NCBI GenBank assembly: GCA_026398535.1
Contig: JAPLSQ010000058.1
Span: 34,339 to 98,338, forward strand
DNA from: Candidatus Sumerlaeota bacterium
GTDB lineage: Bacteria > Sumerlaeota > Sumerlaeia > Sumerlaeales > Sumerlaeaceae
Length of the DNA: 64,000 bases
Direction: 5' to 3'
The position numbers and the translations under genes are program-made. A model generated the notes under the pieces. That model had not been told where the DNA came from, did not search any database, and worked only from the letters and a program-made list of their open reading frames with translations. The stretch's first letter is position 1. Each line of letters begins with the position of its first letter. Positions 598 to 47,852 of the stretch are shown one piece after another.

Positions 598-669
598 CCG
601 GTCAGCGAGTACGCCATCAGGCCGGTCAGCGAGTACGCCATCAGGCCGGTCAGCGAGTACGCCATCAGG
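598..669 (+). repeat. 24-mer repeat A, three perfect tandem copies
   Basis: CCGGTCAGCGAGTACGCCATCAGG at 598-621, 622-645, 646-669; same 24-mer recurs at 7 other loci in the window. Confidence 0.97.
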
Positions 670-784
670 CGGGCATGATATTATATGCTTCCCTTTCAGG
701 GTGGCGCGATGGTTGATATGCATCCCGAAATGTTGAGATTCAAAAGCGCGATACGTTGCGGCGCAACGCGGCGCATCGAAAGGG

Positions 785-3268
785 ATGGCGCGCCGCATGA
801 TGGCGATGAGCATGCCTGAAACGTCGTGCGAAACGCCGTTCGAACGGCGTTATCTGGCCGGGATTGCGCTGTTTTCATGCTGCAACATCCTGGTGCAGCT
901 TCTGCTGACGCGGCTGTTCAGCGTGACGCTTGCCTATCATTTCGCGTTCATGGTGATCAGCATCGTCATGCTGACGCTTGCGGCGCCGGGCGCGCTGATC
1001 TTCGCGTTTCCGCGTGTTTTCAGTGCGCGGCGGTTCACCCCGCAGGCGGCGGGCGCGGCGCTGGCTTACGGCTGCCTGCTTTTCGCGGTGCTGGCCGTTT
1101 ACCTTGCGCTGAATTTGCGCGTGGCTTCGCCCCACGCGACGGAGTGGATGCGCCCCGAGGGCCGGCGAAACATCGCGATCATCTTCGCGATGTGGATCGT
1201 TCCGCCGCTGGCGGGCGGTTTTGTGCCTGCGCTCATGCTCACGCATTTTCCCCGGCGCGCGCCTTCCATTTACGGCTGTGATCTTGCCGGCGCGGCTGCG
1301 GGCGGGCTGCTTTTCATGGGAATCATGAAACTGTTTTCCGGGATCACGGCGATCATTCTGGCTGCGGCGCTGTTGTGTGCCGCCGGGGCGGTCCTGGCGG
1401 GGCGCGTCCGTCCCCGCATCGCGCTGGCCGGTGTTGCCGCCGCGGCGCTGCTGTGCGTCTTTGCCGCCGCAAACGCCGCCATGCGGCCCCATGCGCCCGT
1501 GCGCATACGATACGCCAAGTATTATAAAGAACCCGAACCGCTCATCGAGCAATGGTCGCCCATCTCGCGCGTCACGGTATTCGGCGCAGCCGCCATGCTT
1601 CCCCTCAAACCCGACATCGGTTTCGGCTGGGCCATGAGCAAAAACTACAAGGGGCCGCCAGCGCGCGAGTTGTGGATGGAGCAGGACGCCGCGGCGGGCA
1701 CTCCTATCACCGCGTGGGACGGCGTCACGACCTCCGGCGTGGAGCATGTGCTGTGGGACATCACTTCCATCGCACATCACGTGACCCGGCCGCAAAGCAT
1801 GTTTGTCATCGGCGCCGGCGGAGGACGCGACATCCTCGCGGGCATCCTCGCGGGCGCGCGCGAAATCCGCGGGGCAGAGATGAACCCAGCCAGCTTCAGC
1901 ATCGTGCGCGACGACCTTTCAAGCTTCACCGGCAGGCTCTATTCAAATCCGCGCGTCAGGATCATCCACGACGAGGGCCGCGCCACGCTGCGCGCGGGCG
2001 GGCAGAATTACGACATGATACAAATCTCGCTCGTCGACTCGCAGACAGCTTCAGCCGCCGGAGCGCTGGTTTTCGTGGAAAACCTGCTCTACACGCGCGA
2101 GGCGTTCGAAACATACCTCGGCCATCTGACAGCCGGCGGGGCGGTCTCCATCTCATGGTATTTCATCGGGACGCCGCCCGGAATGCTTTACCGCATGCTC
2201 ATGGCGCCCGCCGACGCCCTGAGGCGCAAGGGAATCGCGAACCCCATGGCGCACATCCTGCTGTTCCGAAACGGAATCGGCGCAACTTATCTTGTCAAGC
2301 GCGCGCCGTGGCGGCCCGACGAGGTTGACCGCGCGCGCGCGGAATCCAAAAGGCTGGGATTTGACCTGATCATGGACGCACAGTCGCTTCCGGCTGATCG
2401 CGACCTTGCCGACATCGTGACAAATCCCAAGGCGCTCATGGCGCGCTACCCGCTCAATCTGAGCGCGCCCACAGATGATTCGCCGTTTGTGTTTCAGCTT
2501 GAGAAATGGGACACCGATCCGGCGAAGGTGTCGCCCGATCTGCGGGCGAACCTTGTGGGCACGCGCGTGCTGCGCCCGCTTCTGTGGCTCATGGCGGCGG
2601 CCAGCGCCGTTTTGATCCTGCTGCCGCTGGCGTGGCGGACGCTTCTGGCGCGCCGCGGCGGACACGGCGGCCCGCCTCCGATCGCGGCGCCCGCCTCGCT
2701 GGCATGGCCCGCCATCGCCGTCGCGGGCGGTTGCGGCATGGGCTACCTCGTGGCCGAACTCGCGCTGATGCATCTCGGTTCGCTCATCGTCGGATATCCG
2801 GTTTACGCGCTTGTGCTGACGCTGGTCGCGCTGCTGCTGGGCAGCGGGGCGGGATCGGCGTTCAGCGGCAGATATGATCCGGCGCGGCTGGCGCGCTCGC
2901 TCGGCTGGATCATGATTGTCCTGGCCGGTGTCATTGCCGCGATGCCGCCCTTGCGCCCTGCCATACAGGACGCCGCGGCTGCGATGCCGTGGGCCGGACG
3001 CGCGTGCATGATTTTTGGCGTTTGTTTCGTGACGGGTTTCTTCATGGGAATGCCGTTTCCGACGCTGATGCGTCTTGTGGATCGTTCAGGCGCCGGAGGG
3101 CTCCTGCCCTGGTTGTGGGGGCTTAACGGCATGGCCGGCGTGATGTCGTCGATCGTCGTGATGTGCATCGCCGTTTTTTCCGGCTACTCGACGGCCATGT
3201 ATTTCGCCGCGGGATGTTACGTGCTCGTTGCGGCGGGATTCGCTGTCATGGCCGCGCGGCGCGCGTAA
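785..3268 (+). CDS. polytopic membrane protein with central spermidine-synthase-like (class I SAM-fold) domain
   Basis: 827-aa ORF; hydrophobic helices at both ends; central VIGAGGGRDI (GxGxG) and MIQISLVDS resemble fused membrane/spermidine-synthase-like proteins; several alternative ATGs 785-812. Confidence 0.55.
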   Translation: MARRMMAMSMPETSCETPFERRYLAGIALFSCCNILVQLLLTRLFSVTLAYHFAFMVISIVMLTLAAPGALIFAFPRVFSARRFTPQAAGAALAYGCLLFAVLAVYLALNLRVASPHATEWMRPEGRRNIAIIFAMWIVPPLAGGFVPALMLTHFPRRAPSIYGCDLAGAAAGGLLFMGIMKLFSGITAIILAAALLCAAGAVLAGRVRPRIALAGVAAAALLCVFAAANAAMRPHAPVRIRYAKYYKEPEPLIEQWSPISRVTVFGAAAMLPLKPDIGFGWAMSKNYKGPPARELWMEQDAAAGTPITAWDGVTTSGVEHVLWDITSIAHHVTRPQSMFVIGAGGGRDILAGILAGAREIRGAEMNPASFSIVRDDLSSFTGRLYSNPRVRIIHDEGRATLRAGGQNYDMIQISLVDSQTASAAGALVFVENLLYTREAFETYLGHLTAGGAVSISWYFIGTPPGMLYRMLMAPADALRRKGIANPMAHILLFRNGIGATYLVKRAPWRPDEVDRARAESKRLGFDLIMDAQSLPADRDLADIVTNPKALMARYPLNLSAPTDDSPFVFQLEKWDTDPAKVSPDLRANLVGTRVLRPLLWLMAAASAVLILLPLAWRTLLARRGGHGGPPPIAAPASLAWPAIAVAGGCGMGYLVAELALMHLGSLIVGYPVYALVLTLVALLLGSGAGSAFSGRYDPARLARSLGWIMIVLAGVIAAMPPLRPAIQDAAAAMPWAGRACMIFGVCFVTGFFMGMPFPTLMRLVDRSGAGGLLPWLWGLNGMAGVMSSIVVMCIAVFSGYSTAMYFAAGCYVLVAAGFAVMAARRA

Positions 3269-4186
3269 TCACCGGTCAGCGAGTACGCCATCAGGCCTGA
3301 GCAGATCCGCGATCTGTTTTTCCGCGGCGGTCATGAGGGTGTTGTGGTCGGCGCCCGCGACGGGCCGCAGCGTGATCATTGTTGGATGACGCCCGGAAAG
3401 CTCCTTTGACATCCGGAAGGGCACGATGTCGTCTGCCGTGCCATGCAGGATGAGCACCGCCGGCGGATCCGCGCGCGAGGCCAGCCCGGCCAACCGCGCG
3501 CGGTTGTCATAGCGGTCGCGCAACAGATTGCACAGCGGCCATCCCACCGACAGCCGAGCCATGTCCAGCAGGCTCGTGAACGGCGCGAGCAGGACGACCT
3601 GCTTCACGGGATGCCCCGCCGCAAAATCCAGTCCCGTGGCCGAGCCAATGGAGAATCCGAGAATGTTGAGGCCGGTTTCGAGCGCGGTGAGCGGACAATG
3701 GAGATGATCCGCGAGCGCGCGGAACGCCGCTTCGGACGACTCGCGGATTGTCCCGCGCCGCGCCGCGCCTTCACATTTTCCGTAACCCGGATAATCCATG
3801 AGCAGATAGCCCGCGCGCGCGCCGCGCGCAGCCTCAACCGTGTCCAGCCAGTCGAGCGCCACCGACGCGTTGCCCGAAAATACCGCCCACAAGCGACCGG
3901 GCGGCTTGTCAGACCCGTCCATTGGAGGTATGTAGAATGCCGTCTGCGCGCCCTGCGATGTCCTGTAATTCAGCTCAACCGTGCCGCGCGGCAGACCGCG
4001 GGCATACGATGGATCGTAGCGCCTGGGAAAATAAATCATTTTCTGCTGAAAGGCGAACGCCATGCACGACATCAGCAAGAAAAATCCGATGATAATTGTC
4101 ACGATCATGCGCAAAAGTCTTTTCAACAAAGGAACAATCGCAAGCCCGAATGCGGGATTTGGCGTCGGGGAAAGATGATTGGTCAT
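3269..4186 (-). CDS. alpha/beta-fold hydrolase with N-terminal membrane anchor
   Basis: GFSIGS nucleophile elbow, LILHGTADDIVP, N-terminal TM helix; last 8 codons (PDGVLADR) are the reverse complement of repeat A at 3272-3295. Confidence 0.7.
   Translation of the reverse strand: MTNHLSPTPNPAFGLAIVPLLKRLLRMIVTIIIGFFLLMSCMAFAFQQKMIYFPRRYDPSYARGLPRGTVELNYRTSQGAQTAFYIPPMDGSDKPPGRLWAVFSGNASVALDWLDTVEAARGARAGYLLMDYPGYGKCEGAARRGTIRESSEAAFRALADHLHCPLTALETGLNILGFSIGSATGLDFAAGHPVKQVVLLAPFTSLLDMARLSVGWPLCNLLRDRYDNRARLAGLASRADPPAVLILHGTADDIVPFRMSKELSGRHPTMITLRPVAGADHNTLMTAAEKQIADLLRPDGVLADR
3272..3295 (+). repeat. 24-mer repeat A, single copy
   Basis: exact CCGGTCAGCGAGTACGCCATCAGG between convergent stops (TAA 3266-3268 on +, TGA 3269-3271 on -). 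Confidence 0.95.
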
Positions 4187-4226
4187 TTTTTCCCGGTCAG
4201 GGAGACCTCACCCTCTGATGACAAAC

Positions 4227-8233: not shown

Positions 8234-8266
8234 CATGGAGAACACGGACAAACACCCGGTCACCGG
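8234..8266 (+). repeat. decamer repeat block plus A-like 5' fragment
   Basis: CATGGAGAACACGGACAAACAC followed by CCGGTCACCGG; lies between convergent stops 8228-8230 (+) and 8260-8262 (-). Confidence 0.85.
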
Positions 8267-14673: not shown

Positions 14674-14692
14674 CTCCTGGCAAAGCATTGAT

Positions 14693-28824: not shown

Positions 28825-28896
28825 CGTGGTCAAACACATCTTCTCCGGCAACGGCACGGGAATCGCGTTCCGGGTGATGCCGGCATTAGGTGAACA

Positions 28897-31338: not shown

Positions 31339-31436
31339 ACTCCGCCGAAACGGGCCGCGCCCGCCCCAAGGATCGCGTATCGATAACCCGTTTGCACAAT
31401 GTCCCATAATTAACCATACATGACGCCGCCAACCGC

Positions 31437-33208: not shown

Positions 33209-33288
33209 GAAATATGCTCCGTTTTACTATCGATGTGTTTTAAATAACGGGCATTGCACAAGAAAAAGCCAGTTAAAACAGATTCATT

Positions 33289-33337
33289 GACATGGAGAAC
33301 ACGGACAAGCACGGACAAACACGGACAAACACGATGG
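33289..33337 (+). repeat. decamer block between two - strand genes
   Basis: GACATGGAGAACACGGACAAGCACGGACAAACACGGACAAACACGATGG; + orientation although both neighbours are on the - strand. Confidence 0.93.
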
Positions 33338-34308: not shown

Positions 34309-34457
34309 ATTCTGCTAAAAGGGCATCCGCGGCCGCCCCCCCCGTCGACAGGCTGGAAGCCCGCGCCACAATCCGACGCTTGATGCATAATGTCATAGAC
34401 ACCCTGCTTGGAAGGTATTATATCGTGACAACCAACTTATCAATACAGGAGATCGCA

Positions 34458-37281: not shown

Positions 37282-38820
37282 ATGGAACCATCAACAGCGC
37301 AGGAAACCATTTCGGCCTCGGCAACGGTCTTGCGTTTAACGGCCATTGTTCTGCTTGTGGCGCTCAACGGTTTCTTTGTGGCAGCCGAGTTTGCCATCGT
37401 TCGCGTGCGTGCGACGAGAGTCAAAGCGCTTGCCCGGCGCGGATCGCACATCGCAATAATCGCCGAGCACATGCTTGGGCACCTCAACGCCTACCTGAGC
37501 GCCACGCAACTCGGCATAACGATCGCATCGATCCTGCTCGGCTGGGTGGGTGAATCAACCCTGCGCGTGAGCATCATCGGTCCTGCTTTCAAAGCGCTCA
37601 ACATCACCAACCCAACCTTGCTGCACGTTGTGTCGTTCCTTTTCGGCACGGGGCTTATCGTTTTCCTGCATGTTGTCCTTGGCGAACAGGCGCCCAAGGC
37701 GCTGGCCATCCAATTTCCTGAAATCACGACAATGTGGATCGCCTATCCCCTGAAGTGGTTTTATTACCTCCTGTATCCGATCATCACCGTGCTCAACAAT
37801 GCCTCGCTGCTGATGCTGCGGCTTGTTGGCATTCAACCGGCAACAGAGCATGACATGGGCCATACGGAGGAGGAACTGCGCATGCTCTTCTCGGCCTCCA
37901 CCCGCTCAGGCGTCCTGACCACGGAAAAGCGCGTCCTGCTGGAAAACGTGTTCGATCTTTCCCAGCGCATCGTCCGCCAGATCATGGTGCCGCGCACCCA
38001 GGTGGCCGCCTTCAACCTCCAGAAAACTCTCGCCGACAATATGCGCATCGCGGCGCTGACCGCCCACAGCCGCTACCCGCTCATCGACGGCGATCTCGAC
38101 CATGCCGTGGGACTCATCCACATGAAGGACCTTTTCTGGCAGCTCAAGGAGATGGAAGCCCCGCACCCCCCCCTGAGCGCCGAAGGCGGCGAAGACACTG
38201 GCGGCGCCGCGCCCGACGACCTCAACCCCATGATCTCTGGCGGCGACGTGGCGCTCAACCAGCCTGCGACCGGCGCCGAATTCCTGCGAAAGATCGCCCG
38301 CGAAGTCCCCTACGTGCCCGAAACGATGCGCATCGACAACCTTCTGCGCGAACTCCAGCAGAAGCACGTGCACCTGGCCATGGTCGTGGATGAATACGGA
38401 GGAACATCCGGGCTTGTCACCTTTGAAAATGTCATCGAGGAAATCGTGGGGGAGGTGCAGGACGAGTTCGACCAGGAGACACCGCTTATCCGCCGGATCA
38501 ACGACACGGAATTCGCCATCGACGGCTTCGCGCCGCTCACCGAAGTCAACGACGCTCTGGGATGCGACCTGCGCGCTGAAGATGCCGACACCATCGGCGG
38601 CTACATCCTCGCGGAACTTGGCCGCATGCCCGTGACCGGCGACCGGCTGAGCGCCGAGGGCATCGAACTCACCGTCAGCGAAATGCAACGCCACGGCATC
38701 CAGCGCATCCACGCGCGGCTGCTCGGCCAGGCCGCGCCCGGCGACGAACACGGAGAACACGGAGAACACGGAGAACACGGACAAACACGGACAAACACGG
38801 ACAAACACAGAGAACCATGA
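37282..38820 (+). CDS. CNNM/CorC-HlyC-family transporter (DUF21-CBS pair-CorC_HlyC)
   Basis: LNGFFVAAEFAIVRVR (DUF21), CBS pair, GGTSGLVTFENVIEEIVGEVQDEFD; last about 25 codons (DEHGEHGEHGEHGQTRTNTDKHREP) are repeat-encoded. Confidence 0.88.
   Translation: MEPSTAQETISASATVLRLTAIVLLVALNGFFVAAEFAIVRVRATRVKALARRGSHIAIIAEHMLGHLNAYLSATQLGITIASILLGWVGESTLRVSIIGPAFKALNITNPTLLHVVSFLFGTGLIVFLHVVLGEQAPKALAIQFPEITTMWIAYPLKWFYYLLYPIITVLNNASLLMLRLVGIQPATEHDMGHTEEELRMLFSASTRSGVLTTEKRVLLENVFDLSQRIVRQIMVPRTQVAAFNLQKTLADNMRIAALTAHSRYPLIDGDLDHAVGLIHMKDLFWQLKEMEAPHPPLSAEGGEDTGGAAPDDLNPMISGGDVALNQPATGAEFLRKIAREVPYVPETMRIDNLLRELQQKHVHLAMVVDEYGGTSGLVTFENVIEEIVGEVQDEFDQETPLIRRINDTEFAIDGFAPLTEVNDALGCDLRAEDADTIGGYILAELGRMPVTGDRLSAEGIELTVSEMQRHGIQRIHARLLGQAAPGDEHGEHGEHGEHGQTRTNTDKHREP
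38746..38816 (+). repeat. decamer block forming 3' end of CNNM gene and 5' junction of next gene
   Basis: GAACACGGAGAACACGGAGAACACGGAGAACACGGACAAACACGGACAAACACGGACAAACACAGAGAACC, then ATGA (38817-38820). Confidence 0.95.
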
Positions 38821-40208
38821 GCCAGCCAATGACACCCGCACAACTTCCGCCGCTGAAGAAGCGCGTCGAGTCCGTCGACGCTTTTCGCGGCTTCACGATC
38901 TTTGCCATGATTTTCGTGATCATGGTTGCCGGATACCGCAACCTGCCGCTGACCTTTCCGCATTTTGGCAGCGCGCCGGTGTCGACCTTCAAACACGCCA
39001 GCGAGGACGCCGCCCCCCCCCTACCGCGTGAATGGGCCTTCTGGCAGGGGCTCAAAACATCGGACCCCCCCCTTATTTATTATGCCGGCAAGCTTCTGGC
39101 CTGCGACACAAACTCAAGCTGCACGGTGGCGGTGCTTGGCGACAAGGACACGACGCTGGCCGTGGTGAGCGGGGCGCGCATCCGCGCCGCCAAGCCGCTC
39201 CGGCCCGGCGAGGAGGTGATCGCTCGGTCGCTCGCTCCGGCCCCGCCGCGATCCGGCGTCATGGGCGAACCGGTCAGCGAGTACGCCATCAGGCCGGACA
39301 GCTTCACCATGCAGGGAACCGGCAACGGATGCACATTCTGCGATCTTGTGGCGCCGTTTTTCGTGTTCATTGTCGGCGTGTGCATCCCGCTCAGCAAGCG
39401 CAAGCGCGGCGCCGAATGGTGGCGTCATGTGGGTTTCCGCACTCTCAGCCTCATCCTCGCCGGCGTCCTTTACATTTCGCTCATCCTCAAGCTTTCGTGG
39501 TGGTGGGGCATTTTGCAGGCCATCGGCGCGGCTTATTTCATGGGCGCGGTGGCGATGTTCCTGCCCGTCTGGGGGCGCTGGACAGCGATTGCTGTCATTG
39601 CGGCATTTCACGCATGGATGTCGTGGCATGTTCCTTGGTGGCTGGAGCTGGGCGACAAGACGCGCCCGTTCTTCACGATCGCCAACCTTCACGGCGACCC
39701 GCTTCGCCCCCTCACCGTGCATTGCACGCCCTGGGCGTCGATCTCATGGGGAATCATCGCCATCGCGGGCACGCTCATCGGCGACGCCGTCGCCGGCCGT
39801 GAACCGCGCGCCATCATCCGCCAGTGCCTTGTTGTCGGCGTCATCCTCACCGCCGCTGGCTGGCTGCTTCATATCTATCAGGCGCCGATGAACAAGGACT
39901 ATGTCTCGCCCGCCTATTCCGTGTTCACATCGGGGTTGGGCGCGCTGTGCTACCTCGTGTTTTACCTGCTCATTGACGCGGCGGGCCTGAAACTGTGGGC
40001 GTGGCCGTTCACCGTGTTCGGCGCGAACGCGCTGCTGGCGTATTTCATGCAGCCCGTTGTGCGCATCTTCTTCCAGGCGCTGGGACTGTACCCCTTCTTC
40101 ACCTCGCACGCCGGCTGGAACGGCGTGCTGTGGGGGCTGATCTGGACAACCTGCCTGTGGGTCGTTGTGCTTTGGTGCAACAAAAAAAACATCTATTGGA
40201 AATTATGA
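38817..40208 (+). CDS. DUF5009/DUF1624 acyltransferase-family membrane protein (heparan-alpha-glucosaminide N-acetyltransferase-like)
   Basis: RVESVDAFRGFTIFAMIFV N-terminal motif, about 10 TM helices; long first loop carries two C8-9 runs and repeat A. Confidence 0.6.
   Translation: MSQPMTPAQLPPLKKRVESVDAFRGFTIFAMIFVIMVAGYRNLPLTFPHFGSAPVSTFKHASEDAAPPLPREWAFWQGLKTSDPPLIYYAGKLLACDTNSSCTVAVLGDKDTTLAVVSGARIRAAKPLRPGEEVIARSLAPAPPRSGVMGEPVSEYAIRPDSFTMQGTGNGCTFCDLVAPFFVFIVGVCIPLSKRKRGAEWWRHVGFRTLSLILAGVLYISLILKLSWWWGILQAIGAAYFMGAVAMFLPVWGRWTAIAVIAAFHAWMSWHVPWWLELGDKTRPFFTIANLHGDPLRPLTVHCTPWASISWGIIAIAGTLIGDAVAGREPRAIIRQCLVVGVILTAAGWLLHIYQAPMNKDYVSPAYSVFTSGLGALCYLVFYLLIDAAGLKLWAWPFTVFGANALLAYFMQPVVRIFFQALGLYPFFTSHAGWNGVLWGLIWTTCLWVVVLWCNKKNIYWKL
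39270..39293 (+). repeat. 24-mer repeat A inside CDS (frame 1: PVSEYAIR)
   Basis: exact 24-mer; P152 codon at 39270 by codon count. Confidence 0.95.
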
Positions 40209-40376
40209 CAATATCGTCATTCCGCGCGATCAACAAGCCCCCCCCTGATTATTTAGATGCGGGAGAGATGCCCGCGATCCGATGCTCCGCCCCCCCCCCC
40301 CCGAAAATAAGCGCGCCTCCCGCCAATTTACACGGGCTTGCGCTGTATCAGGTTCATCAACGGCGCCGCGTCGCCC

Positions 40377-40416
40377 GACAACGAACACGGACAAACACGG
40401 ACAAACACGGAGAACC
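40377..40416 (+). repeat. decamer block abutting pckG start
   Basis: GACAACGAACACGGACAAACACGGACAAACACGGAGAACC-ATGA; C12 run at 40290-40301 and C7 at 40238-40244 further upstream. Confidence 0.93.
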
Positions 40417-42294
40417 ATGAGCATGACAATCTGCGGCGACACCCTGACCAGCAACAGGATCGTGAAAAACTGGATCGACGAGATGGCGGCCATGTGCCAG
40501 CCGGACAGAATCGAGTGGATCGAAGGATGCGACGATCAGCGCGACATGTTGCGCGATGAGGCCGCGCGAACGGGCGAGATCATTCCGCTTGATCCCGTCA
40601 AGTACCCAAATTGCTACTACCACCGCACCCATCCCCTCGATGTGGCGCGCACAGAGGACAAAACATTCATCTGCTGCCGCAACGAGAAAAACGCCGGCGC
40701 CACCAACAACTGGAAAGATCCCGAAGAGGCCTATCTTGAGGCTGCAAGCTTTTTACACGGCTCCATGCGCGGCCGCACGATGTATGTCATCCCCTTTTCC
40801 ATGGGCCCCATCGGCTCGCCCTTCAGCAAAATCGGGATTGAACTCACCGACAGCATCTACGTGGCGCTTAACATGATGATCATGACTCGCGTTGGCCGCG
40901 AGGTGCTCGACGCGCTTGGCTCAAGCGCCGATTTCACCCGGTGCCTGCACAGCAAGGCGGGCCTCGACCCCGACAAGCGCCGCATCCTCCATTTCCCCGA
41001 AGACAACACCATCTGGTCCGTGAACTCGGGTTATGGCGGCAACGTGCTGCTCGGCAAGAAGTGCCTCGCGCTGCGCCTGGCAAGCTGGATGGCATGGCAG
41101 GAGGGGTGGCTCGCCGAGCACATGCTCATTCTCGGCATCGAGGAGCCAACCGGCTATGTGGATTACATTGCCGCCGCCTTCCCCAGCGCCTGCGGCAAAA
41201 CAAACCTGGCCATGCTCGTCCCCCCGGAAGGGCTGAAAAGCAAAGGCTACCGCATCTGGACCGTTGGCGACGACATCGCATGGATCCGCCCCGACACCGA
41301 CGGGCGCTTGTGGGCCATCAATCCCGAGGCGGGATTCTTCGGCGTATGCCCCGGCACCAATTCGCGCACCAATCCCAACGCCATGGCAACCCTGCAAAAA
41401 AACACCATCTTCACCAATGTCGTGCTTGGCAATGACGGCACGATCTGGTGGGAGGAAGGCGACGGCGATCCGCCCGCCGGCGCCCTCGACTGGCTGGGCA
41501 ATCCATGGCATACCGGCAAAAAAGACGCCAAAGGCGGCGTGATTGCCGGGGCGCACGCCAACAGCCGTTTCACCGCGCCGTTGCGCCAATGCCCCTCGGC
41601 TTCGCACCGCGTGGAGCACCACCACGGCGTGCCCATTTCGGCGATCATCTTCGGCGGCCGCCGCGAGCGCCTGGCCCCGCTGGTGTACGAGGCGCTGTCA
41701 TGGAACCACGGCGTGTTCATCGGCGCCAGCATGGCAAGCGAACGAACCGCCGCGCAGTACGGCACGCAGGGCGAGGTGCGCCGCGACCCCTTCGCCATGC
41801 TCCCATTCTGCGGCTATAACATCGCGGAATATTTCAAGCACTGGATAAAAATGGGGCGCACCGTCAAACATCCCCCGAAGATATTCCATGTGAACTGGTT
41901 CCGCAAAGACGCCGACGGCAAATTTCTGTGGCCCGGCTACGGCGAGAACCTGCGCGTCCTCGAATGGGTGCTCCAACGCACACGCGGCGAAGGCGACGCC
42001 GTGCTCTCGCCCATCGGCTATCTTCCCACACCCGACGCTTTCGACATGACCGGCCTCATACTTTCGAAGGCCGCCATGGCAAAACTGCTCGAGGTCACTG
42101 GGGAAGACTGGAAGCAGGAAGCCAACAGTGTTGGCGAGTTTTTCGACACGCTCGGTCCTTGCATGCCTTGGGAAGTGCGCAACGAGCTGGAAGCCCTGCG
42201 GCGAAGGTTGGAGCCAGGGGAGAACACGGACAACCACGAACAAGCACGGACAAGCACGGACAAAGAACGAATAACACCCACAATCCTGCCGTGA
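40417..42294 (+). CDS. pckG: phosphoenolpyruvate carboxykinase (GTP)
   Basis: FPSACGKTNLAM (P-loop), WAINPEAGFFGV, NWFRKDADGKFLWPGYGENLRVLEW; last about 25 codons repeat-encoded. Confidence 0.95.
   Translation: MSMTICGDTLTSNRIVKNWIDEMAAMCQPDRIEWIEGCDDQRDMLRDEAARTGEIIPLDPVKYPNCYYHRTHPLDVARTEDKTFICCRNEKNAGATNNWKDPEEAYLEAASFLHGSMRGRTMYVIPFSMGPIGSPFSKIGIELTDSIYVALNMMIMTRVGREVLDALGSSADFTRCLHSKAGLDPDKRRILHFPEDNTIWSVNSGYGGNVLLGKKCLALRLASWMAWQEGWLAEHMLILGIEEPTGYVDYIAAAFPSACGKTNLAMLVPPEGLKSKGYRIWTVGDDIAWIRPDTDGRLWAINPEAGFFGVCPGTNSRTNPNAMATLQKNTIFTNVVLGNDGTIWWEEGDGDPPAGALDWLGNPWHTGKKDAKGGVIAGAHANSRFTAPLRQCPSASHRVEHHHGVPISAIIFGGRRERLAPLVYEALSWNHGVFIGASMASERTAAQYGTQGEVRRDPFAMLPFCGYNIAEYFKHWIKMGRTVKHPPKIFHVNWFRKDADGKFLWPGYGENLRVLEWVLQRTRGEGDAVLSPIGYLPTPDAFDMTGLILSKAAMAKLLEVTGEDWKQEANSVGEFFDTLGPCMPWEVRNELEALRRRLEPGENTDNHEQARTSTDKERITPTILP
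42219..42270 (+). repeat. decamer block at 3' end of pckG
   Basis: GGAGAACACGGACAACCACGAACAAGCACGGACAAGCACGGACAAAGAACGA. Confidence 0.9.
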
Positions 42295-42479: not shown

Positions 42480-43391
42480 ATGGCGGTTGTCGTGGTCTGT
42501 CTCGGAACGGAGAACCACGGACCCCCCCCTGAACCACGGACAACCACGGACATATCGGGTGTCAGGTTTGCGGTGACCAACTCGTGGCTGGAATGCTGTC
42601 TGCGCGATATCGCCGGCCCCCCCCCGCCTGACGCGGATGTGGCGCGTCTTTGTCCGCCGGGCTCGTGTCCGGGCCATTTTGACATAAAACCGGGCGACGC
42701 GGCTGTGCTTATGAAATGCCAGGCGCTGTTCCGGTTCGATTTTCAGAAATCTCTCGACGCCAGGATACAAGGTCTGCGCACCGAGGGTCCCGCAATCATA
42801 TCCATTCCTGCCCCCGATGGGCTGTGCATCCCGGATCGCTACCTTGAATCTTGCGAGTCAATTCATGATGAACTGGCAAGACTGGAACCCGGCAGGCGTG
42901 CGGTTTTCGATGCCGCGCTGACAGCCACACGCGCGCGGCTCTCGAGCCTGTCCGCGCAGGCGCATGCCACGATTGCGGATGCGCGGTTACCGGGCGTGCG
43001 CGTTGTTGTGTCGGGGCGCCAAGCCGCTTTCTGCCGATGGCTCGGATTGGACACGGTGAGCGCCTATTCCGGCGGGGAGGCCGCGTCGCCCGCGCAACTG
43101 CGGGCGCTTGTAGAGAAAGGGCGTGATGCCAGGGTGCGTTTCGTCATCACGAACCTGCAGGAGGGCCGGCAGATGGGCGAGGCGCTTGCCTATCATCTCG
43201 GCGCCCAAGTGGTCGTGTTCAGCAACTTCCCGGACATGACGAGTTCCCAGAACAGCTTCGACGCCCTGGTAAACATGAACATTCAGGCGCTGATCTCGGC
43301 CGCGGGCGCCATCAGGCACGGAAACCGGTCAGCGAGTACGCCATCAGGCGGACAAACACGGACAAACACGGACAGGCACGGAGAACCATGA
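42480..43391 (+). CDS. TroA/ZnuA-like metal ABC transporter substrate-binding protein (atypical, Cys-rich)
   Basis: VRFAVTNSWLECCLRDIAG...LCPPGSCPGHFDIKPGD...FRFDFQ follows the ZnuA pattern (v.tt..l.d....G...l...g.dpH.ye.p.d); start uncertain (see findings); 3' end repeat-encoded. Confidence 0.55.
   Translation: MAVVVVCLGTENHGPPPEPRTTTDISGVRFAVTNSWLECCLRDIAGPPPPDADVARLCPPGSCPGHFDIKPGDAAVLMKCQALFRFDFQKSLDARIQGLRTEGPAIISIPAPDGLCIPDRYLESCESIHDELARLEPGRRAVFDAALTATRARLSSLSAQAHATIADARLPGVRVVVSGRQAAFCRWLGLDTVSAYSGGEAASPAQLRALVEKGRDARVRFVITNLQEGRQMGEALAYHLGAQVVVFSNFPDMTSSQNSFDALVNMNIQALISAAGAIRHGNRSASTPSGGQTRTNTDRHGEP
42506..42551 (+). repeat. decamers with embedded C8-TGA module
   Basis: AACGGAGAACCACGGA-C8-TGAACCACGGACAACCACGGACA. 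Confidence 0.88.
43308..43387 (+). repeat. A 3' fragment + CACGGAAA + repeat A + decamers
   Basis: GCCATCAGG CACGGAAA, A at 43325-43348 (frame 2: RSASTPSG), CGGACAAACACGGACAAACACGGACAGGCACGGAGAACC, then ATGA. Confidence 0.95.
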
Positions 43392-44200
43392 TATTCACCA
43401 CAGAGACAACCGCCGTGCTCGATGTCGTCAGCCTGCGCGCGGGCCCAACGACCATTCTTTGTGATGTGTCGCTCACGCTTCAGCGTGGCGAATTTGTATG
43501 CGTGCTTGGACCCAATGGCGCCGGCAAGAGCACAATGCTTTCCATGATGAACGGCACGGCGCGGCCAACCGCCGGAACAGTCAGGCTGCTCGGAACGTCC
43601 GTCTGGGAAACCGGGGAGCGAGTCCGCGCCCGCCTGCGTGCGCGCATTGGGACCGTGCTTCAGCGCAGTGAGTACAATCCGCAGATTCCCCTCACCACGC
43701 GCGAGGTGGTCGCGATCGGCCGCGCCGGACCCTGCGGCATCCTGCGGGCGCTTGACACCCAGGACTGGCGCCGCGTTGACGAAGCCATTGACTGTCTTGA
43801 CCTTGCCCCCCTTGCCGGGCGGGTATATCACACTCTTTCAGGCGGCGAACAGCAGAAGACGCAGATCGCGCGCGCGCTGGCACAACACCCCCGGATGCTG
43901 CTGCTCGACGAACCGGCCACCGGCTTGGACATCGACTGGCAGGAACGGATGATCAGTTTGGTCGATTCTCTGTTTGGGAGCGCCGATATCCCTGTCGTCA
44001 TGACGACCCACCACACGGGACATATTCCCCCCTGTTGCAACCGCGTGGTGCTTTTGTCGCGCGGCCGGGTCGTATTTGACGACGCCCCGGACGCCGCACT
44101 CACTGCGCCGGTCCTGTCGGCTCTGTATGGCTGCCGCATTGAAGTCATCGAGCGCAACGGCCGTCGTCACTGTCACAGCGCCGGAGGGTTCGCGCCATGA
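43388..44200 (+). CDS. metal ABC transporter ATP-binding protein (ZnuC-like)
   Basis: GPNGAGKST, LSGGEQQK, LLLDEP; first 19 nt (ATGATATTCACCACAGAGA) also occur at 28781-28799. Confidence 0.9.
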   Translation: MIFTTETTAVLDVVSLRAGPTTILCDVSLTLQRGEFVCVLGPNGAGKSTMLSMMNGTARPTAGTVRLLGTSVWETGERVRARLRARIGTVLQRSEYNPQIPLTTREVVAIGRAGPCGILRALDTQDWRRVDEAIDCLDLAPLAGRVYHTLSGGEQQKTQIARALAQHPRMLLLDEPATGLDIDWQERMISLVDSLFGSADIPVVMTTHHTGHIPPCCNRVVLLSRGRVVFDDAPDAALTAPVLSALYGCRIEVIERNGRRHCHSAGGFAP

Positions 44201-45060
44201 TGTTTCTCTGGCAGGCGGCGGCCGTCCTTGCCGGTTCTTCCACCGGGTTGCTCGGTGTCTATGTCGTCGGATTCCGGATGCCCTTCCTTGGCATCGCGAT
44301 GGCGCATGCCGCGATGGCCGGGGCCGTTCTGGCATGTCTGCTGGGGTTGCCTGTCGGCCCGCTGGCGCTCCTGTTCGCGTTGCTGGCCGCGGCGGTCATG
44401 GCATGGCTTGTCACGACGCATTTACGCGCCGATCTCAACACGGTGACAAGCATCCTGCTTTCGCTCACGATGGGGCTCGCGTTTCTTGGCATCGGTCTGA
44501 ACAAGGGCGATATGACGCCGCTGCTTGGCCTGATGTGGGGCAGCCTGCTTTTTGTGCGGCCGGCGGATGTCTGGATCATGCTGGCGATGATGGCTGCGCT
44601 CGTTCTGTTCGTGACGATGCTGGGCAAGGAGATGGACGCCATGCTGTTCAGCCGCAACATCGCACGCGCCTGCGGCGTCAACGACCGGCTCGTGCTTGTC
44701 CTGTTCCTGGTGCTTGCCGCGGTGATCATCACGGTGAACCTTCAGATTGTGGGCGGACTGCTCATGTACAGCCTGCTCACGAATCCTGCCGCGGCCGCGT
44801 TCGAAATTGGGCGCGGCATGCGCGCGGTGCGGTTTCTGGCCGCCTCGGCCGGCGCGCTCGGCGCTGTTGGCGGTTTCTGGCTGTCCTATCCCCTGAACCT
44901 GCCCACCGGCGCCTGCATCGTTATTGTGAGCGCATTGCTCTACGCCGTCGCATTGGCGGCCGGACAACCACGGAGAACACGGACAAGCACGGACAAGCAC
45001 GGACGAACGAAGACCGGTCAGCGAGTACGCCATCAGGCGGACAACCAAGGACACGGATGA
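44197..45060 (+). CDS. metal ABC transporter permease (ABC-3 / ZnuB-like)
   Basis: 8-9 TM helices, GLLGVYVV...FLGIAMAHAAMAGA typical of ABC-3; ATGA overlap with ATPase; last about 33 codons repeat-encoded. Confidence 0.85.
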   Translation: MMFLWQAAAVLAGSSTGLLGVYVVGFRMPFLGIAMAHAAMAGAVLACLLGLPVGPLALLFALLAAAVMAWLVTTHLRADLNTVTSILLSLTMGLAFLGIGLNKGDMTPLLGLMWGSLLFVRPADVWIMLAMMAALVLFVTMLGKEMDAMLFSRNIARACGVNDRLVLVLFLVLAAVIITVNLQIVGGLLMYSLLTNPAAAAFEIGRGMRAVRFLAASAGALGAVGGFWLSYPLNLPTGACIVIVSALLYAVALAAGQPRRTRTSTDKHGRTKTGQRVRHQADNQGHG

Positions 45061-45074
45061 AATACCCGCACCAA
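44961..45074 (+). repeat. decamers + repeat A + 33-nt ATG module
   Basis: CGGACAACCACGGAGAACACGGACAAGCACGGACAAGCACGGACGAACGAAGA, A at 45014-45037 (frame 3), CGGA, CAACCAAGGACACGGATGAAATACCCGCACCAA (45042-45074). Confidence 0.95.
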
Positions 45075-45932
45075 TCCGATGAGGCCCTCGGCGCGTTCTT
45101 TGACAAGTGCGCCTTGAATGGTGACATGGCGGATTTTACGCCTGAGGAGCAGAGGAAGCTGGCAAGTTTCCTGAGATTGTGGGACATCAGGGCTGGCCAG
45201 CATGTGTTGGAGCCGGGGTGTGGCAGCGGACGCCTGACAGCCCGGCTGGCTTCCATCGCGGGGTCTGAGGGCAGGGTCCATGCGTGCGACCTCTCACCCG
45301 AGATGATCCGCCGCGCGAAACAGCACGGGTTGCCGCCCCAAGCGGAATTTGTTGTCGAATCCATCAACACGCTGCACGAGCCAGACAAATCGTTCGACCA
45401 CGTCGTCTGCCTGAACGTCTTCCCGCATTTCAGCCACCATCCCCGGGCGCTGGCACAGATTGCCCGCGTGCTCAAGCCGGGCGGGCATCTGTGGATCAGC
45501 CATTTTGAAGGAAGCGACCGCATCAATCAGTTCCACCGCGATGCGGCGCCCGAGGTGGCCCAACACATGCTGCCGGGCGCGCAGGCAATGCGGCAACTTA
45601 TAGCCGGAGCCGGCCTCACATGGATAGGGCTGACCGACATACCGGAGATGTACTCGCTGCACGCCATCAAAAGCACGGAGAACACGGACAACCACGGACA
45701 AGCACGAAGAAGCACGGAGAACCCGGAGAGCACGGACAAGCACTACGGCGACATCATGCCGTTGCTCAGGCGCGTCACCACCCCGGCGCTCATGGTTCCA
45801 TTGGTCGGATCATACCATGTGCGCGGCGGTACGGGAAGATGCGAAGCGTCAGAGTCCCAGAAGCTCATGGGGCCGATCGGCCCGACGCTCCACAGAGCCC
45901 ATTTCGCCGGGGCTGACTGCTCATCGAAGTAG
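45057..45932 (+). CDS. class I SAM-dependent methyltransferase with repeat-mediated 3' read-through
   Basis: VLEPGCGSGRL (motif I), VLKPGGHLWI; fold ends near ...EMYSLHAIK (about 45669) but first in-frame stop is at 45930-45932. Confidence 0.7.
   Translation: MKYPHQSDEALGAFFDKCALNGDMADFTPEEQRKLASFLRLWDIRAGQHVLEPGCGSGRLTARLASIAGSEGRVHACDLSPEMIRRAKQHGLPPQAEFVVESINTLHEPDKSFDHVVCLNVFPHFSHHPRALAQIARVLKPGGHLWISHFEGSDRINQFHRDAAPEVAQHMLPGAQAMRQLIAGAGLTWIGLTDIPEMYSLHAIKSTENTDNHGQARRSTENPESTDKHYGDIMPLLRRVTTPALMVPLVGSYHVRGGTGRCEASESQKLMGPIGPTLHRAHFAGADCSSK
45672..45744 (+). repeat. decamer block after methyltransferase fold
   Basis: GCACGGAGAACACGGACAACCACGGACAAGCACGAAGAAGCACGGAGAACCCGGAGAGCACGGACAAGCAC; preceded by ACGCCATCA (A 3'-like fragment). 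Confidence 0.9.
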
Positions 45933-46390
45933 GGAATGTCCGTTGACGGGCCGCCGTCGAGCGGGAAATCCCTCGGAATCCACAAAGCCAGAATCGTCTG
46001 GACCTCGTTGGACCAGCCAAAACCGGGGGCGATGTATTTGTAACGCCGCCCTTCCCGCCCCCCCCCGTTAAACACGTCGCAATACCGGTTGCTCAGGTAG
46101 GGAACCGGCGAGGTCAGTTCCGGCGGCAGAATGTTGTGCTCATCCTGGTTCGCCTGCATGCCCGCGCAGTAGGTGCGCGCGGGCGGATAACGGTTCTGGT
46201 CCGACCGGTACATCTCGACACCGCTGGCAATCGCGCGCAAGTCGGCTTTGGCGCGGGCGACTTTGGATCTGGTCTGCGCCAGCAGAAAGTTGGGCGTCGC
46301 GATGGCCGCAAGGATCGCGATGATCGCCGCGACGATCAGCAGTTCCACGAGTGTGAAACCGGACGCCCGCTTTCCGTCCGCCTTGAGCAT
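45743..46390 (-). CDS. prepilin-type N-terminal cleavage/methylation domain protein (DUF1559 / H-X9-DG family)
   Basis: GFTLVELLIVAAIIAILAAIATPNF; ATG 46388-46390 overlaps upstream stop (TAATG). Confidence 0.85.
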   Translation of the reverse strand: MLKADGKRASGFTLVELLIVAAIIAILAAIATPNFLLAQTRSKVARAKADLRAIASGVEMYRSDQNRYPPARTYCAGMQANQDEHNILPPELTSPVPYLSNRYCDVFNGGGREGRRYKYIAPGFGWSNEVQTILALWIPRDFPLDGGPSTDIPYFDEQSAPAKWALWSVGPIGPMSFWDSDASHLPVPPRTWYDPTNGTMSAGVVTRLSNGMMSP

Positions 46391-47365: not shown

Positions 47366-47406
47366 TAGAGGCATCGGCTGTCCTATACAGATTTAGGAGG
47401 CATCAG

Positions 47407-47829
47407 ATGGGTGAAGCAGCCCGATATACTGTTTCAATGGACGGCCGCCTGCTGGAGCAATTCGACGAGCTGATCGACAAGCGCGGATACGCGAACCGCT
47501 CGGAGGCCATCCGCGGCCTTATCCGGGGCGCGCTGGTGGAGGAGCAATGGTCGGCAAGGCCGGCGGCAAAGGTTGCCGCCACAATAACGCTTGTCTATTC
47601 CCATCACGCGGGCGGCATCGCCAACCAGGTCGCGCACACTCAGCATCACCACTGCAATCTCGTCGTTTCCTCCACGCACGTGCATCTTGACAACGACAAC
47701 TGCCTTGAGGTGGTCATCGTCCGAGGCCCGAGCGCCCGGGTGCGGAAACTTGCCGAGGAACTCATCTCGCTCAAGGGAATCAAGCACGGAAAAGCGGTTT
47801 TCACAACCGAGGGGAAAGACATAGTCTAA
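47407..47829 (+). CDS. nikR: nickel-responsive transcriptional regulator NikR
   Basis: RHH N-domain RYTVSMDGRLLEQFDELIDKRGYANRSEAIR; C-domain HTQHHHCNLVVSSTHVHLD; AGGAGG RBS at 47395-47400. Confidence 0.9.
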   Translation: MGEAARYTVSMDGRLLEQFDELIDKRGYANRSEAIRGLIRGALVEEQWSARPAAKVAATITLVYSHHAGGIANQVAHTQHHHCNLVVSSTHVHLDNDNCLEVVIVRGPSARVRKLAEELISLKGIKHGKAVFTTEGKDIV

Positions 47830-47830
47830 A

Positions 47831-47852
47831 ACGCGGACAACACGGACAACAA
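47831..47852 (+). repeat. short degenerate decamer block
   Basis: ACGCGGACAACACGGACAACAA directly after nikR stop. Confidence 0.6.

Follow-up and report, generated by a model that had tools for sequence, protein, structure and literature searches.

Short T-poor repeats and poly-C runs of a single orientation in a Sumerlaeota-like bacterium: a possible minisatellite-like family

How could short sequence blocks become scattered over a stretch of bacterial genome in one and the same orientation, inside genes as well as between them? In the 64 kb analysed here (the window), from a Sumerlaeota-like bacterium, short T-free modules and poly-C runs occupy about 45 sites (Table 1). The initial annotation had made the same observation but counted only about 26 loci, and the effect is larger than it stated. 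Our preferred reading, to which we give a probability of roughly 0.4, is that the family is lineage-specific, non-autonomous, minisatellite-like DNA made of four T-poor kinds of unit, a MIRU-like dispersed minisatellite that may have spread via slippage and one-strand template switching.

Composition and orientation of the family

The four kinds of unit are a 9-mer ACGGAGAAC, 10-mers of the form ACGGACAA[A/C/G]C (together called B units), a 24-mer CCGGTCAGCGAGTACGCCATCAGG (repeat A) and tracts of 8 to 13 C, often with TGA directly 3'. All 10 exact copies of repeat A reported earlier were recovered in place on the plus strand; they are mutually identical (10/10), and the 24-mer had no occurrence in 100 shuffles of the sequence. 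The motif ACGGASAA has 65 matches in the window, with 3.5 expected, and TRF found the previously described 9/10-nt arrays, with 2 to 12 units each. The adaptor modules that had been listed are true duplicates: a 47-nt hairpin module (20239 and 24039), ATGGCAGGCATCATG (19422 and 35520), TGACATGGAGAACACG (17182 and 33288, two loci that also have ACACGATGG in common), and a 33-mer and ATGATATTCACCACAGAGA, discussed below. The proposal of a single modular family is supported, and this family matches no described repeat family: Rfam gave no match, and no paper containing the unit sequences was found in the literature. As claimed, repeat A leaves 5 of the 6 frames open, and B units contain no T and therefore neither a stop codon nor an ATG in any of the six frames.

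Orientation is uniform, with all 10 A copies, 64 of the 65 ACGGASAA units and all 25 C-tracts of at least 8 bases on the plus strand. The lone minus-strand match, at 32185, is an isolated unit; apart from it, neither the window nor 79 kb of a sister assembly contains a reverse copy, and uniformity persists across about 70 to 79 kb with this 99.65%-identical assembly included. The C-tracts, listed before as a C8-9/TGA adaptor but with their strand asymmetry overlooked, belong to the family and are equally strand-locked (25 against no poly-G in the window). Gene strand has no bearing on orientation: two arrays (24039 and 33288) are antisense to the minus-strand operons that contain them, repeat A at 3272, read antisense, supplies the end of a minus-strand gene, and convergent genes flank the array at 8234. 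GC skew at four-fold degenerate sites ranges from -0.42 to +0.32, and because its values change from gene to gene it reflects codon bias here, not replichore; orientation stays the same across sign changes of the bulk skew.

Such polarity might be the work of an HUH/Y1 enzyme (similar to RAYT or to IS200/IS605 TnpA) that acts in trans from a gene in another part of the genome, with single-stranded DNA transposition into the lagging-strand template setting orientation per replichore. Perfect uniformity whatever the gene strand speaks for this, as do the identical 24-mers (preceded by A in 10 of 11 cases and mostly followed by C(C)GG) and the fact that, on related contigs, they run in the same direction as rpsB and rpsG, which fits a replication-defined strand. 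We nevertheless consider it unlikely: the family units form no hairpins (minimum free energy is zero for B arrays, and repeat A has a 3-bp stem only), array ends are mosaic and variable rather than fixed, no Y1 gene was found within 79 kb, strain differences are all slippage or patch replacement, and units measure 9 to 24 nt, while all HUH substrates known to us are far larger. The family, its orientation, its stop-free units and the lack of transposase, integrase or RAYT genes, which extends to 15 kb of flanks, stand from the initial annotation, but the HUH-type mechanism that it suggested gained no positive evidence. Within the 79 kb, the readable stretch of one genome, neither transposase, RAYT nor reverse transcriptase was present; a trans-acting gene may possibly lie elsewhere in the genome, beyond the roughly 79 kb read.

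Table 1. Sites of the repeat family in the window, all on the plus strand (A, repeat A; B, 9/10-mer units; Cn, tract of n C; sister, the sister assembly)
Position	Feature	Context
598-669	A x3 in tandem, then CGGGCATGATATT	intergenic; two copies in sister; Logan contigs start inside
3272-3295	single A	antisense is C-terminal PDGVLADR-stop of minus-strand hydrolase gene 3269-4186
8234-8256	short B array (CATGGAGAAC ACGGACAAAC), A-like fragment CCGGTCACCGG	between convergent genes
15649-15658	C10	in GT4 gene
16502-16512	C11, adjoins CACGGAAACG	in GlgC, encodes PPP; sister has GCGT instead of C11GG (net 9 nt)
17182-17245	TGACATGGAGAAC, two ACG-C8-TGACAAAC units, ACGGAGAAAC, ACG, then ATG	composite LysA leader
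18166-18189	A	in LysA coding sequence (PRSASTPS)
18307-18315	C9	in LysA
18613-18678	C9, then (ACGGAGAAC)x5	ends at RecX start codon
19346-19436	B units, A (19392-19415), CGGAGA, ATGGCAGGCATCATG	composite GDPD leader
19474-19481	C8	in GDPD gene
19886-19893	C8, then TGA	in GDPD gene
20239-20285	GC-hairpin module, two 10-mers	translated, GDPD C-terminal tail
21644-21718	CACGGAAA, A, four B units	in frame, FtsZ C-terminal linker
21829-21850	two degenerate 10-mers	upstream of lipoate ligase gene
22502-22512	C11	in lipoate ligase gene
22600-22607	C8	directly past lipoate ligase stop
24039-24131	hairpin module, four 10-mers, 33-mer	antisense between minus-strand DegT and GT2 genes
25482-25628	longest array, ~13 units, mostly ACAGACAACC	divergent intergenic region; unit order differs in sister
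28737-28837	mosaic: B units, ATGATATTCACCACAGAGA copy, B units, 19-mer from DJ-1 gene (23161)	
33288-33337	TGACATGGAGAAC, three 10-mers, ACGATGG	antisense between two minus-strand genes
34133-34141	C9	in minus-strand deacetylase gene (poly-G in mRNA)
34220-34228	C9	in same deacetylase gene
34336-34343	C8	intergenic
35434-35534	eight B units, ATGGCAGGCATCATG	inside ORF 34933-37248; one 9-mer fewer in sister
35545-35554	C10	
36177-36186	C10	1-nt length difference in sister
36552-36559	C8	
37247-37281	B array	ends at CorC start codon
38166-38173	C8, then TGA	in CorC gene
38746-38816	seven-unit array	translated, CorC C-terminal tail; ends in ATGA overlap with following gene; 9-nt difference in sister
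39013-39021	C9	
39065-39072	C8	
39270-39302	A, degenerate partial second copy	in frame (PVSEYAIR), 463-residue protein
40238-40245	C8, then TGA	intergenic
40290-40302	C13	length differs in sister
40381-40416	B array ending GGAGAACC	abuts ATG of PEPCK (start confirmed, 40417)
42219-42271	B array	translated, PEPCK C-terminal tail
42503-42552	B units with embedded C8-TGA	in frame, directly past lipobox-like Cys of ZnuA-type protein
42617-42625	C9	in ZnuA-type gene
43317-43406	CACGGAAA, A, four B units, ATGATATTCACCACAGAGA	ATGATATTCACCACAGAGA is ABC ATPase gene start; ATGA overlap
44955-45074	B units, A, 33-mer	translated, permease tail; 33-mer provides methyltransferase ribosome-binding site and ATG (45057)
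45668-45743	B array	in frame, methyltransferase C-terminal region; +20 nt in sister
46058-46066	C9	
47199-47268	B array	antisense to minus-strand gene, at its 5' end or upstream
47828-47857	short B-like array	12 nt upstream of ribosome-binding site, gene 47869
63593-63600	C8	sole family member within 48-64 kb

Copies in reading frames and in leaders

The repeats had been described as filling gene junctions, which is true of some copies, but many others, overlooked at the time, are translated in frame within coding sequences. These include copies in LysA, the FtsZ linker, the tails of PEPCK, CorC and the permease, the N-terminal linker of the ZnuA-type protein and the methyltransferase, and some of the genes concerned are essential or conserved. 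Nine FtsZ homologues are without the linker insert, and the A copy in LysA falls in a 13-residue surface-loop insertion relative to E. coli LysA. By computation, a T-free strand codes for only 12 residues (A, D, E, G, H, K, N, P, Q, R, S and T), all hydrophilic or small, and for no stop, which is why a copy inside a plus-strand gene would become a hydrophilic, disordered linker or tail. Copies would persist only at harmless positions, and those in the FtsZ linker, the LysA surface loop and protein termini are probably tolerated.

Roughly 13 of the 33 plus-strand starts have an array at most 75 nt upstream, and several of these leader arrays end in GGAGAACC abutting ATG; none of the 12 minus-strand starts is preceded by a sense-orientation array. 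A copy upstream of a start would form a structure-free leader, often with GGAG and ATG, and may benefit translation. Selection for a functional motif could go further, with arrays born by local duplication and retained as U-free, structure-free Shine-Dalgarno leaders, as arrays bound by an RNA-binding protein (ACGGA is similar to A(N)GGA, the site of CsrA-type proteins) or as polar signals like Chi or KOPS, whose uniform polarity the family shares. The enrichment directly 5' of starts, with GGAG 3 to 7 nt from ATG in several cases, the predicted folding energy of zero, the retention of the 9-mer across phyla and that polarity are all in keeping with this. A leader or mRNA-binding role is, however, impossible at some copies because they lie in coding regions, at 3' ends or antisense in minus-strand operons; unit number varies freely between strains, and we know of no polar motif arranged as tandem arrays. 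We regard selection of this kind as quite unlikely to account for the family.

Variation between strains and possible modes of spread

The sister assembly (139 SNPs relative to the window; about 79 kb covered, including 15 kb of flanks) revealed a family that is hypervariable between strains, with 8 of 11 indels inside its members, which make up 3.2% of the sequence (p ~2e-10). Unit number is polymorphic: besides the A tandem, B arrays differ by plus or minus 9, 9 and 20 nt, and C-tract patches by plus or minus 9 nt with their flanks replaced. C-tract lengths also change, which could be sequencing errors; the 1-nt change at 36177 turns a 771-residue ORF into ORFs of 425 and 342 residues in the sister. 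The elements occupy the same sites in both assemblies, and since the two strains show no pair of filled and empty sites, seeding at a new site was never observed. Some patches substitute a few bases instead of being plain insertions.

An assembly or sequencing artefact (adaptor sequence, chimeric joins, homopolymer errors) might be suspected, as each of the two sources is a metagenome-assembled genome and errors in homopolymer length are common. It is hardly credible, given the same sites in assemblies 139 SNPs apart, the elements in independently assembled contigs of several SRA runs and a JGI metagenome, and the FtsZ, LysA and PEPCK reading frames that stay intact through them.

Arrays include copied fragments of other genes' 5' ends, and donor flanks travel along with them: the 33-mer at 45042, which holds the methyltransferase ribosome-binding site and first six codons, is found again at 24099, ATGATATTCACCACAGAGA, the ABC ATPase start at 43388, recurs at 28781, and a 19-mer from the interior of the DJ-1 gene recurs at 28819. 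In the minisatellite-like reading, whose likeness to MIRU-type minisatellites had been overlooked, replication slippage would change array length, while short-patch template switching or gene conversion would seed new nearby sites and homogenise arrays. Switching would be confined to one replication-fork strand and carry over a few donor-flank bases, and a dedicated transposase would not be needed. Template switching alone, however, does not predict perfect strand uniformity, and the identity of the 24-mers, including those in another metagenome, is explained as easily by a mobile or enzymatically templated unit as by concerted evolution, if not more easily.

A templating enzyme could be a reverse transcriptase or a telomerase-like or primase-like enzyme that repeatedly copies a short internal template and adds units and C-tails to a single strand where the DNA is nicked or broken. 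Units of 9-10 nt have primer/template size, every unit starts with ACGG and ends with AC, the register expected for repeated copying, and the C-tracts look like untemplated tailing; unit identity across unrelated phyla and patches that swap a few bases, not mere insertions, point the same way. Such writing is improbable all the same: no candidate enzyme was seen in the 79 kb, the copied neighbour-gene scraps require a genomic donor and not a fixed template, and we know of no bacterial precedent.

Distribution beyond the window

The absence of repeats reported for 48-64 kb is real except for one C8, and past this gap the sister contig has a plus-strand array at about 64.5 kb. Copies also occur outside the window: those of A, B and C8 reach out to about 6 kb within a 6.7-kb extension to its left, and others lie in the sister flanks, in SRA contigs and in JGI metagenome Ga0194044, where three contigs carry the 24-mer. 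Lower-GC contigs from a metagenome other than that of the window hold it exactly, and short-read contigs of several SRA runs terminate exactly within arrays. The family is lineage-restricted, being absent from relatives at 66% FtsZ identity. Unexpectedly, the 9-mer core doubles as an arm of an undescribed hairpin element, which is identical over 28 nt in at least 12 phyla. This identity tells against our preferred reading, as it suggests that the family began with a transferable element or a shared enzyme. Of the 12 arrays right of 30 kb, 6 contain ACGGACAAGC units, compared with none of 10 left of it (p = 0.015, post hoc), a distribution that we read as regional subtypes, in keeping with the minisatellite-like reading.

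Strand polarity of the repeat family

In the window we found a modular family of micro-repeats locked to one strand, as the initial annotation had proposed. All 10 exact copies of the 24-mer unit (A) lie on the plus strand, with none in shuffled sequence, and 64 of the 65 matches to the motif ACGGASAA, which stands for the T-free 9- and 10-mer units (B), are on the plus strand as well (3.5 expected). Tandem Repeats Finder recovered the head-to-tail B arrays at the loci that had been named for them, and the adaptor modules are true duplicates. The window holds 22 B arrays along with 8 loci of A, and about a dozen of these sit directly upstream of plus-strand starts. The window also contains 25 C-tracts of at least 8 nt on the plus strand and no poly-G tract, a density of about 25 in 40 kb, and several of these tracts are directly followed by TGA. 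Since three C-tracts are embedded in B arrays and all show the same strand lock, they are a fourth module of the family.

Comparison material came from a near-identical strain (the sister; assembly GCA_037138735.1, contig JBAXHV010000010.1), of which 79.3 kb were reassembled from four loci, adding 6.7 kb to the left of the window and 8.5 kb to the right. Reversed A copies, reversed arrays and poly-G tracts all numbered zero in the 64-kb window and in 79 kb of the sister, and inverted matches within the window amounted to nothing beyond short GC-rich chance words. The members in the left flank (one A unit, two C8 tracts, an isolated B-like unit and a canonical arm) all lie on the plus strand, as does an array at about 64.5 kb in the right flank. 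The ACGGACAAGC subtype occurs only in arrays to the right of 30 kb. Shared words of 13-14 nt, such as CACGATGGAACATA, are at chance level at this GC content and were left out of the counts. If this description holds, the repeats form one hypervariable family with roughly one site per 1.4 kb and total strand polarity.

The orientation is uniform regardless of gene strand, and copies stay on the plus strand in minus-strand operons and in a minus-strand gene. Two arrays lie antisense within minus-strand operons whose genes are strongly Pfam-supported, one A copy is read antisense as a protein tail, and two C-tracts lie within a minus-strand gene; orientation thus follows the chromosome strand, not transcription. 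The repeats do not flip near 48-51 kb, where bulk GC skew has its cumulative minimum and switches sign. At four-fold sites the skew ranges gene by gene from -0.42 to +0.32, with GlgC (-0.42) and PEPCK (-0.35) strongly C-biased and other genes G-biased, which indicates that bulk skew here tracks codon preference, not replication. The skew minimum looked like an origin, but GC skew was rejected as a marker of replication direction, as four-fold skew is gene-specific and the repeats have the same orientation on both sides. In two related metagenome contigs, rpsB and rpsG share their coding strand with A, and the plus strand of the window carries most of its genes, which is at most a hint that the T-free strand is leading-strand sequence.

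The window is ordinary chromosome, with ftsZ, lysA, recX, glgC, pckG, lytB, carD and ABC transporters, and its FtsZ is 65-67% identical to those of Candidatus Sumerlaeaceae MAGs. A bacterial homologue of the pentameric ligand-gated ion channels (Neur_chan_LBD plus Neur_chan_memb) adjoins the glycerol kinase gene. Two large PAS/HisKA sensor kinase genes have about 450 bp in common at about 97% identity, apparently through a recent internal domain duplication or gene conversion.

Variation between strains and a possible mechanism

The sister is 99.65% identical to the window, from which it differs across 64 kb by 139 SNPs and some 11 indel events. Eight of these events fall within family sequence, which makes up 3.2% of the window (p about 2e-10), and the number of both A and B units is polymorphic between the two strains. 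The array at 25.5 kb has equal length and a different unit order in the two strains, and no locus filled in one and empty in the other was seen between window and sister.

Positions of repeat-family features, strain differences and neighboring observations (window coordinates unless stated otherwise)
Feature	Position	Detail
A tandem		3 vs 2 copies between strains; indel comparison
9-mer gain or loss	35455, 38773	Window vs sister, 9 nt each
Two extra 10-mers	45693	Extra in the sister, 20 nt
C-tract patch	16502	GCGT vs C11GG, net 9 nt
C-tract patch	18589	AACAAC vs CTCCCCCCTAGCAGC, net 9 nt
C-tract length change	36176, 40290	Homopolymer sequencing error possible
1-nt indels outside the family	52306, 60697	Window vs sister; possible sequencing errors
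C-tracts embedded in B arrays	17198, 17217, 42522	
Antisense arrays	24039, 33288	
Antisense A copy	3272	
C-tracts in minus-strand gene	34133, 34220	
Chance word CACGATGGAACATA	24185	Left out of counts
33-mer	45057, 24099	Methyltransferase start; second copy
ATGATATTCACCACAGAGA	28781	Second copy of ABC ATPase start
DJ-1 19-mer	23161, 28819	Gene interior; second copy
Arrays bracketed by TGACATGGAGAACACG and ACACGATGG	17182, 33288	
Head TTCACCACAGAGA	28785, 43392	
Canonical single arm AAAGATTTCACCACAGAGACGCAGAGAACACGGAGAAAAGC	33618-33660 (sister record)	5.4 kb left of window
ATGA overlaps reached through arrays	38817, 43388, 45057	
Gene calling misled by stop-free arrays	19346-19436, 34933-37248, 40282-40416, 45057-45932	
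Four-fold skew regions	13546-18601, 25692-32672, 40417-42294	
Ligand-gated ion channel homologue	12372-13412	
Shared sensor kinase segment	53042-53490, 58198-58646	
PDDEXK_3 gene	49415-50045	GxxExxY-type; region including its flanking repeats
CGCAAAGACGCAAAGAACGCCAAGGAAGA direct repeats	49462, 50010	29 nt, T-free

The 1-nt change at 36176 splits a 771-residue ORF in the sister. Of the two 1-nt indels outside the family, one lies in a G-run inside a 1112-residue sensor kinase gene, where it would shift the frame, and the other in an intergenic T-run. Short-read contigs from several SRA runs stop exactly within A or B arrays, as expected for repeats dispersed genome-wide; the organism is present in ERR15302196, ERR15302169, ERR15302214, ERR15302187, ERR15302191, ERR15302213, SRR20698649, SRR20698651 and SRR12676968. 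To the explanation that the repeats are an artefact we attach next to no weight.

Several recurring sequences are pieces of genes. The 33-mer, which comprises the ribosome-binding site and the codons MKYPHQ of a methyltransferase, has a second copy that is functionless where it lies, the start of an ABC ATPase gene and a 19-mer from the interior of the DJ-1 gene each recur once more, and two arrays are both bracketed by the same pair of sequences. These scraps are signs of copy-and-paste with donor flanks.

Our results lead us to favor, with a probability of about 40%, a MIRU-like dispersed minisatellite. Array length would change by replication slippage, short-patch template switching or gene conversion tied to one fork strand would bring about both the spread and the uniformity, and copies would be retained where T-free sequence is harmless or acts as an unstructured leader with a Shine-Dalgarno motif. 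The main facts that this model explains poorly are the identity of all 24-mer copies and a core shared across phyla. An enzyme with an internal template might write such identical copies; no transposase, RAYT or reverse transcriptase gene was found within 79 kb, and we regard this explanation as very improbable.

Copies within and before genes

The repeats had been described as unable to encode stop codons, and this is borne out: a T-free strand makes both stop codons and ATG impossible on either strand, and repeat A is open in five of six frames. T-free codons specify A, D, E, G, H, K, N, P, Q, R, S and T only, so that every sense-strand copy is hydrophilic and stop-free, and all three sense frames are in use. 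FtsZ carries an A-plus-B block in its disordered C-terminal linker, ahead of the conserved terminal peptide, where nine homologues have a gap, and in LysA the A-encoded PRSASTPS is part of 13 residues inserted into a loop by comparison with the E. coli enzyme (PDB entry 1knw). PEPCK, CorC, GDPD and an ABC permease end in C-terminal tails that are translated arrays; in a ZnuA-type protein an array forms the linker that follows the lipobox-like Cys, and one segment of a methyltransferase is array-encoded. The antisense of T-free DNA encodes ACFGLPRSVW, a repertoire rich in hydrophobic residues and Cys, which is consistent with minus-strand genes being nearly free of internal arrays.

An array lies within 75 nt upstream of the start in about 13 of 33 plus-strand genes, and none of 12 minus-strand genes is preceded by one in sense orientation. 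Directly before the ATG, several arrays end in GGAGAACC, GGAGAAC or GGAGAAACACG, and three upstream ORFs run through an array into an ATGA stop/start overlap. Such positions could reflect a selected functional motif, which we consider distinctly unlikely as the explanation of a family that also places arrays antisense within operons.

If the description of the family holds, it contributes disordered hydrophilic segments to essential proteins and has entered the leaders of about one-third of the plus-strand genes. It would then be a natural system for studying the origin of strand-specific copying without a recognizable transposase, the emergence of new start sites and of linkers and tails in proteins from stop-free selfish DNA, and the effects of arrays on translation.

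In practice, the family breaks short-read assemblies and misleads gene callers, with starts placed within arrays, ORFs extended or fused by array read-through, and one methyltransferase missed. The GDPD start in one public call is a mutated unit within an array. The Pfam-supported methyltransferase is absent from the gene calls of the sister, in which a 122-residue ORF on the opposite strand is called instead.

Known repeat systems and distribution outside the window

In behavior, the closest known system is that of the MIRU/VNTR loci. In M. tuberculosis these are one family at dozens of loci, mostly intra-operon gene junctions, with tandem units whose number varies between close strains; MIRUs are presumed to be transcribed as part of polycistronic mRNAs, and it has been suggested that they act in differential translation (PMC2734929, PMC3635867). 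Our tests showed that the window family likewise consists of dispersed tandem units, mainly at operon junctions, and that its copy number varies between strains; its arrays also read through to ATGA overlaps. In contrast to MIRUs, which have units of 40-100 bp and are oriented with the flanking genes, the family has units of 9, 10 or 24 nt or homopolymers, is oriented by the chromosome strand, and shows a T-free strand, copies inside conserved coding sequence and a poly-C component.

REP/BIME elements are short, very abundant mosaics of a few modules at gene junctions, and the window family resembles them in each of these respects. REPs are, however, imperfect palindromes that are extragenic and occur in both orientations, often as inverted pairs, whereas the family has no hairpins (for A a 3-bp stem at -2.8 kcal/mol, z = -1.2; for B arrays a minimum free energy of 0), no reversed copy, and copies inside genes. 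The lack of a stem-loop unit, and of any reversed copy in 79 kb, speaks against REP/BIME identity. Rickettsia palindromic elements, as Ogata et al. reportedly described in 2000, are selfish in-frame insertions at tolerated positions in conserved protein genes, and we found the window family in frame within conserved genes too (the FtsZ linker, the LysA loop and others); those elements are whole palindromic insertions of about 100-150 bp, in contrast to tandem 9-24-nt units that are non-palindromic and strand-uniform. Contingency loci of Campylobacter, Neisseria and Haemophilus are phase-variable poly-G/C tracts, and the family similarly places homopolymer or short-unit tracts at gene 5' ends and within genes, with apparent differences in length between close strains, one of which, at 36176, would shift a reading frame. 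Unlike those loci, its tracts show 25:0 polarity and high density and are part of one dispersed multi-module family.

The initial annotation suggested a link to single-stranded DNA mobilization of the HUH/RAYT type. IS200/IS605 elements are said, after work by Ton-Hoang et al. in 2010, to insert into single-stranded DNA at the fork with an orientation tied to replication direction, and an unlinked HUH enzyme might therefore produce a strand-locked family. These elements depend on hairpins near both ends, on a fixed target of 4-5 nt and on TnpA; the window family has no hairpins, and no TnpA gene was found within 79 kb. Directly before the 24-mer stands an A in 10 of 11 copies, and in 3 copies the preceding sequence is CACGGAAA, all of these being filled sites. 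We consider an unlinked HUH enzyme unlikely. The absence of hairpins and the variation of array ends from locus to locus speak against an IS200/IS605-derived miniature element.

Outside the window, the exact 24-mer is absent from GTDB representative genomes and viral contigs and occurs in only three small metagenome contigs (Ga0194044, L001-L003). In these contigs, whose GC content is lower (57-59%), tandem copies of the identical 24-mer adjoin rpsB and lie between rpsG and the next gene; in one of them, five tandem copies, one with a single mismatch, lie just upstream of the ATG after rpsG. A second organism or population thus shares A exactly. Three contigs that total 39 kb, from relatives whose FtsZ is about 66% identical, showed no A, arrays or C/G asymmetry, and one of them, L004, which we searched for empty sites, has ftsZ alone in common with the window. 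The family is thus young and lineage-restricted, with the Ga0194044 contigs as the exception. A protein search with all reading frames of A and B returned no repeat-bearing proteins, and a literature search by literal sequence gave no match for long repeat strings and only unrelated papers for shorter 12-mers.

A pattern of three B units matched more than 110 loci in GTDB representative genomes. The exact 28-mer CCACGGAGAACACGGAGAACACGGAGAA was found in 90 stretches, all of them from MAGs; these comprise about 40 genomes and span at least 12 phyla. A similar array from an Iodobacter isolate (L049) matched the looser three-unit pattern only. CCACGGAGAACACGGAGAACACGGAGAA is usually the T-free left arm, (CACGGAGAA)n, of a hairpin of about 80-200 nt, whose complementary right arm, (TTCTCCGTG)n, lies 12-143 nt downstream and whose loop is not conserved. 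One Blastocatellia MAG has about 30 core-bearing stretches, and the ones that were inspected represent a MITE-like repeat about 190 bp long. The element has no Rfam family and no viral copy, and no arm pairs 300-4000 nt apart were found; Rfam searches at gathering and permissive thresholds gave only sub-threshold generic hairpin (microRNA precursor) models, on foreign hairpin loci.

The window family shares with this element the 9-mer CACGGAGAA and the head TTCACCACAGAGA, and the sister contig holds a canonical single arm whose head is the conserved AAAGATTTCACCAC, which ties the family to the broader element. Elsewhere the hairpins pair two arms, whereas in the window lineage the left-arm sequence forms one-directional arrays without a partner, and no complementary TTCTCCGTG array occurs anywhere in the 79 kb. 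It is possible, if improbable, that a strand-specific enzymatic system writes T-free 9-10-nt units, the 24-mer and C-tails into one strand genome-wide, and that the 28-nt-identical arms in at least 12 phyla are products of the same widespread, undescribed machinery. Candidates for the writing enzyme would be a reverse transcriptase, a telomerase-like enzyme or a primase-polymerase with a short internal template, and the Sumerlaeota lineage of the window would then represent this machinery running unchecked and remodeling protein termini and linkers.

The cross-phylum hairpin element is apparently undescribed, and an arm identical over 28 nt in so many phyla without an Rfam family deserves a study of its own. 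An all-against-all comparison of the adjoining ORFs revealed no conserved neighbor gene, and a PDDEXK_3 gene adjoins a CACGGAGAA arm at one locus only (Rudaea, L088). The window has a PDDEXK_3 gene of its own, flanked by two direct repeats of CGCAAAGACGCAAAGAACGCCAAGGAAGA, each of which holds ACGCAAAG tandem units; this is a second T-free repeat, distinct from the family.
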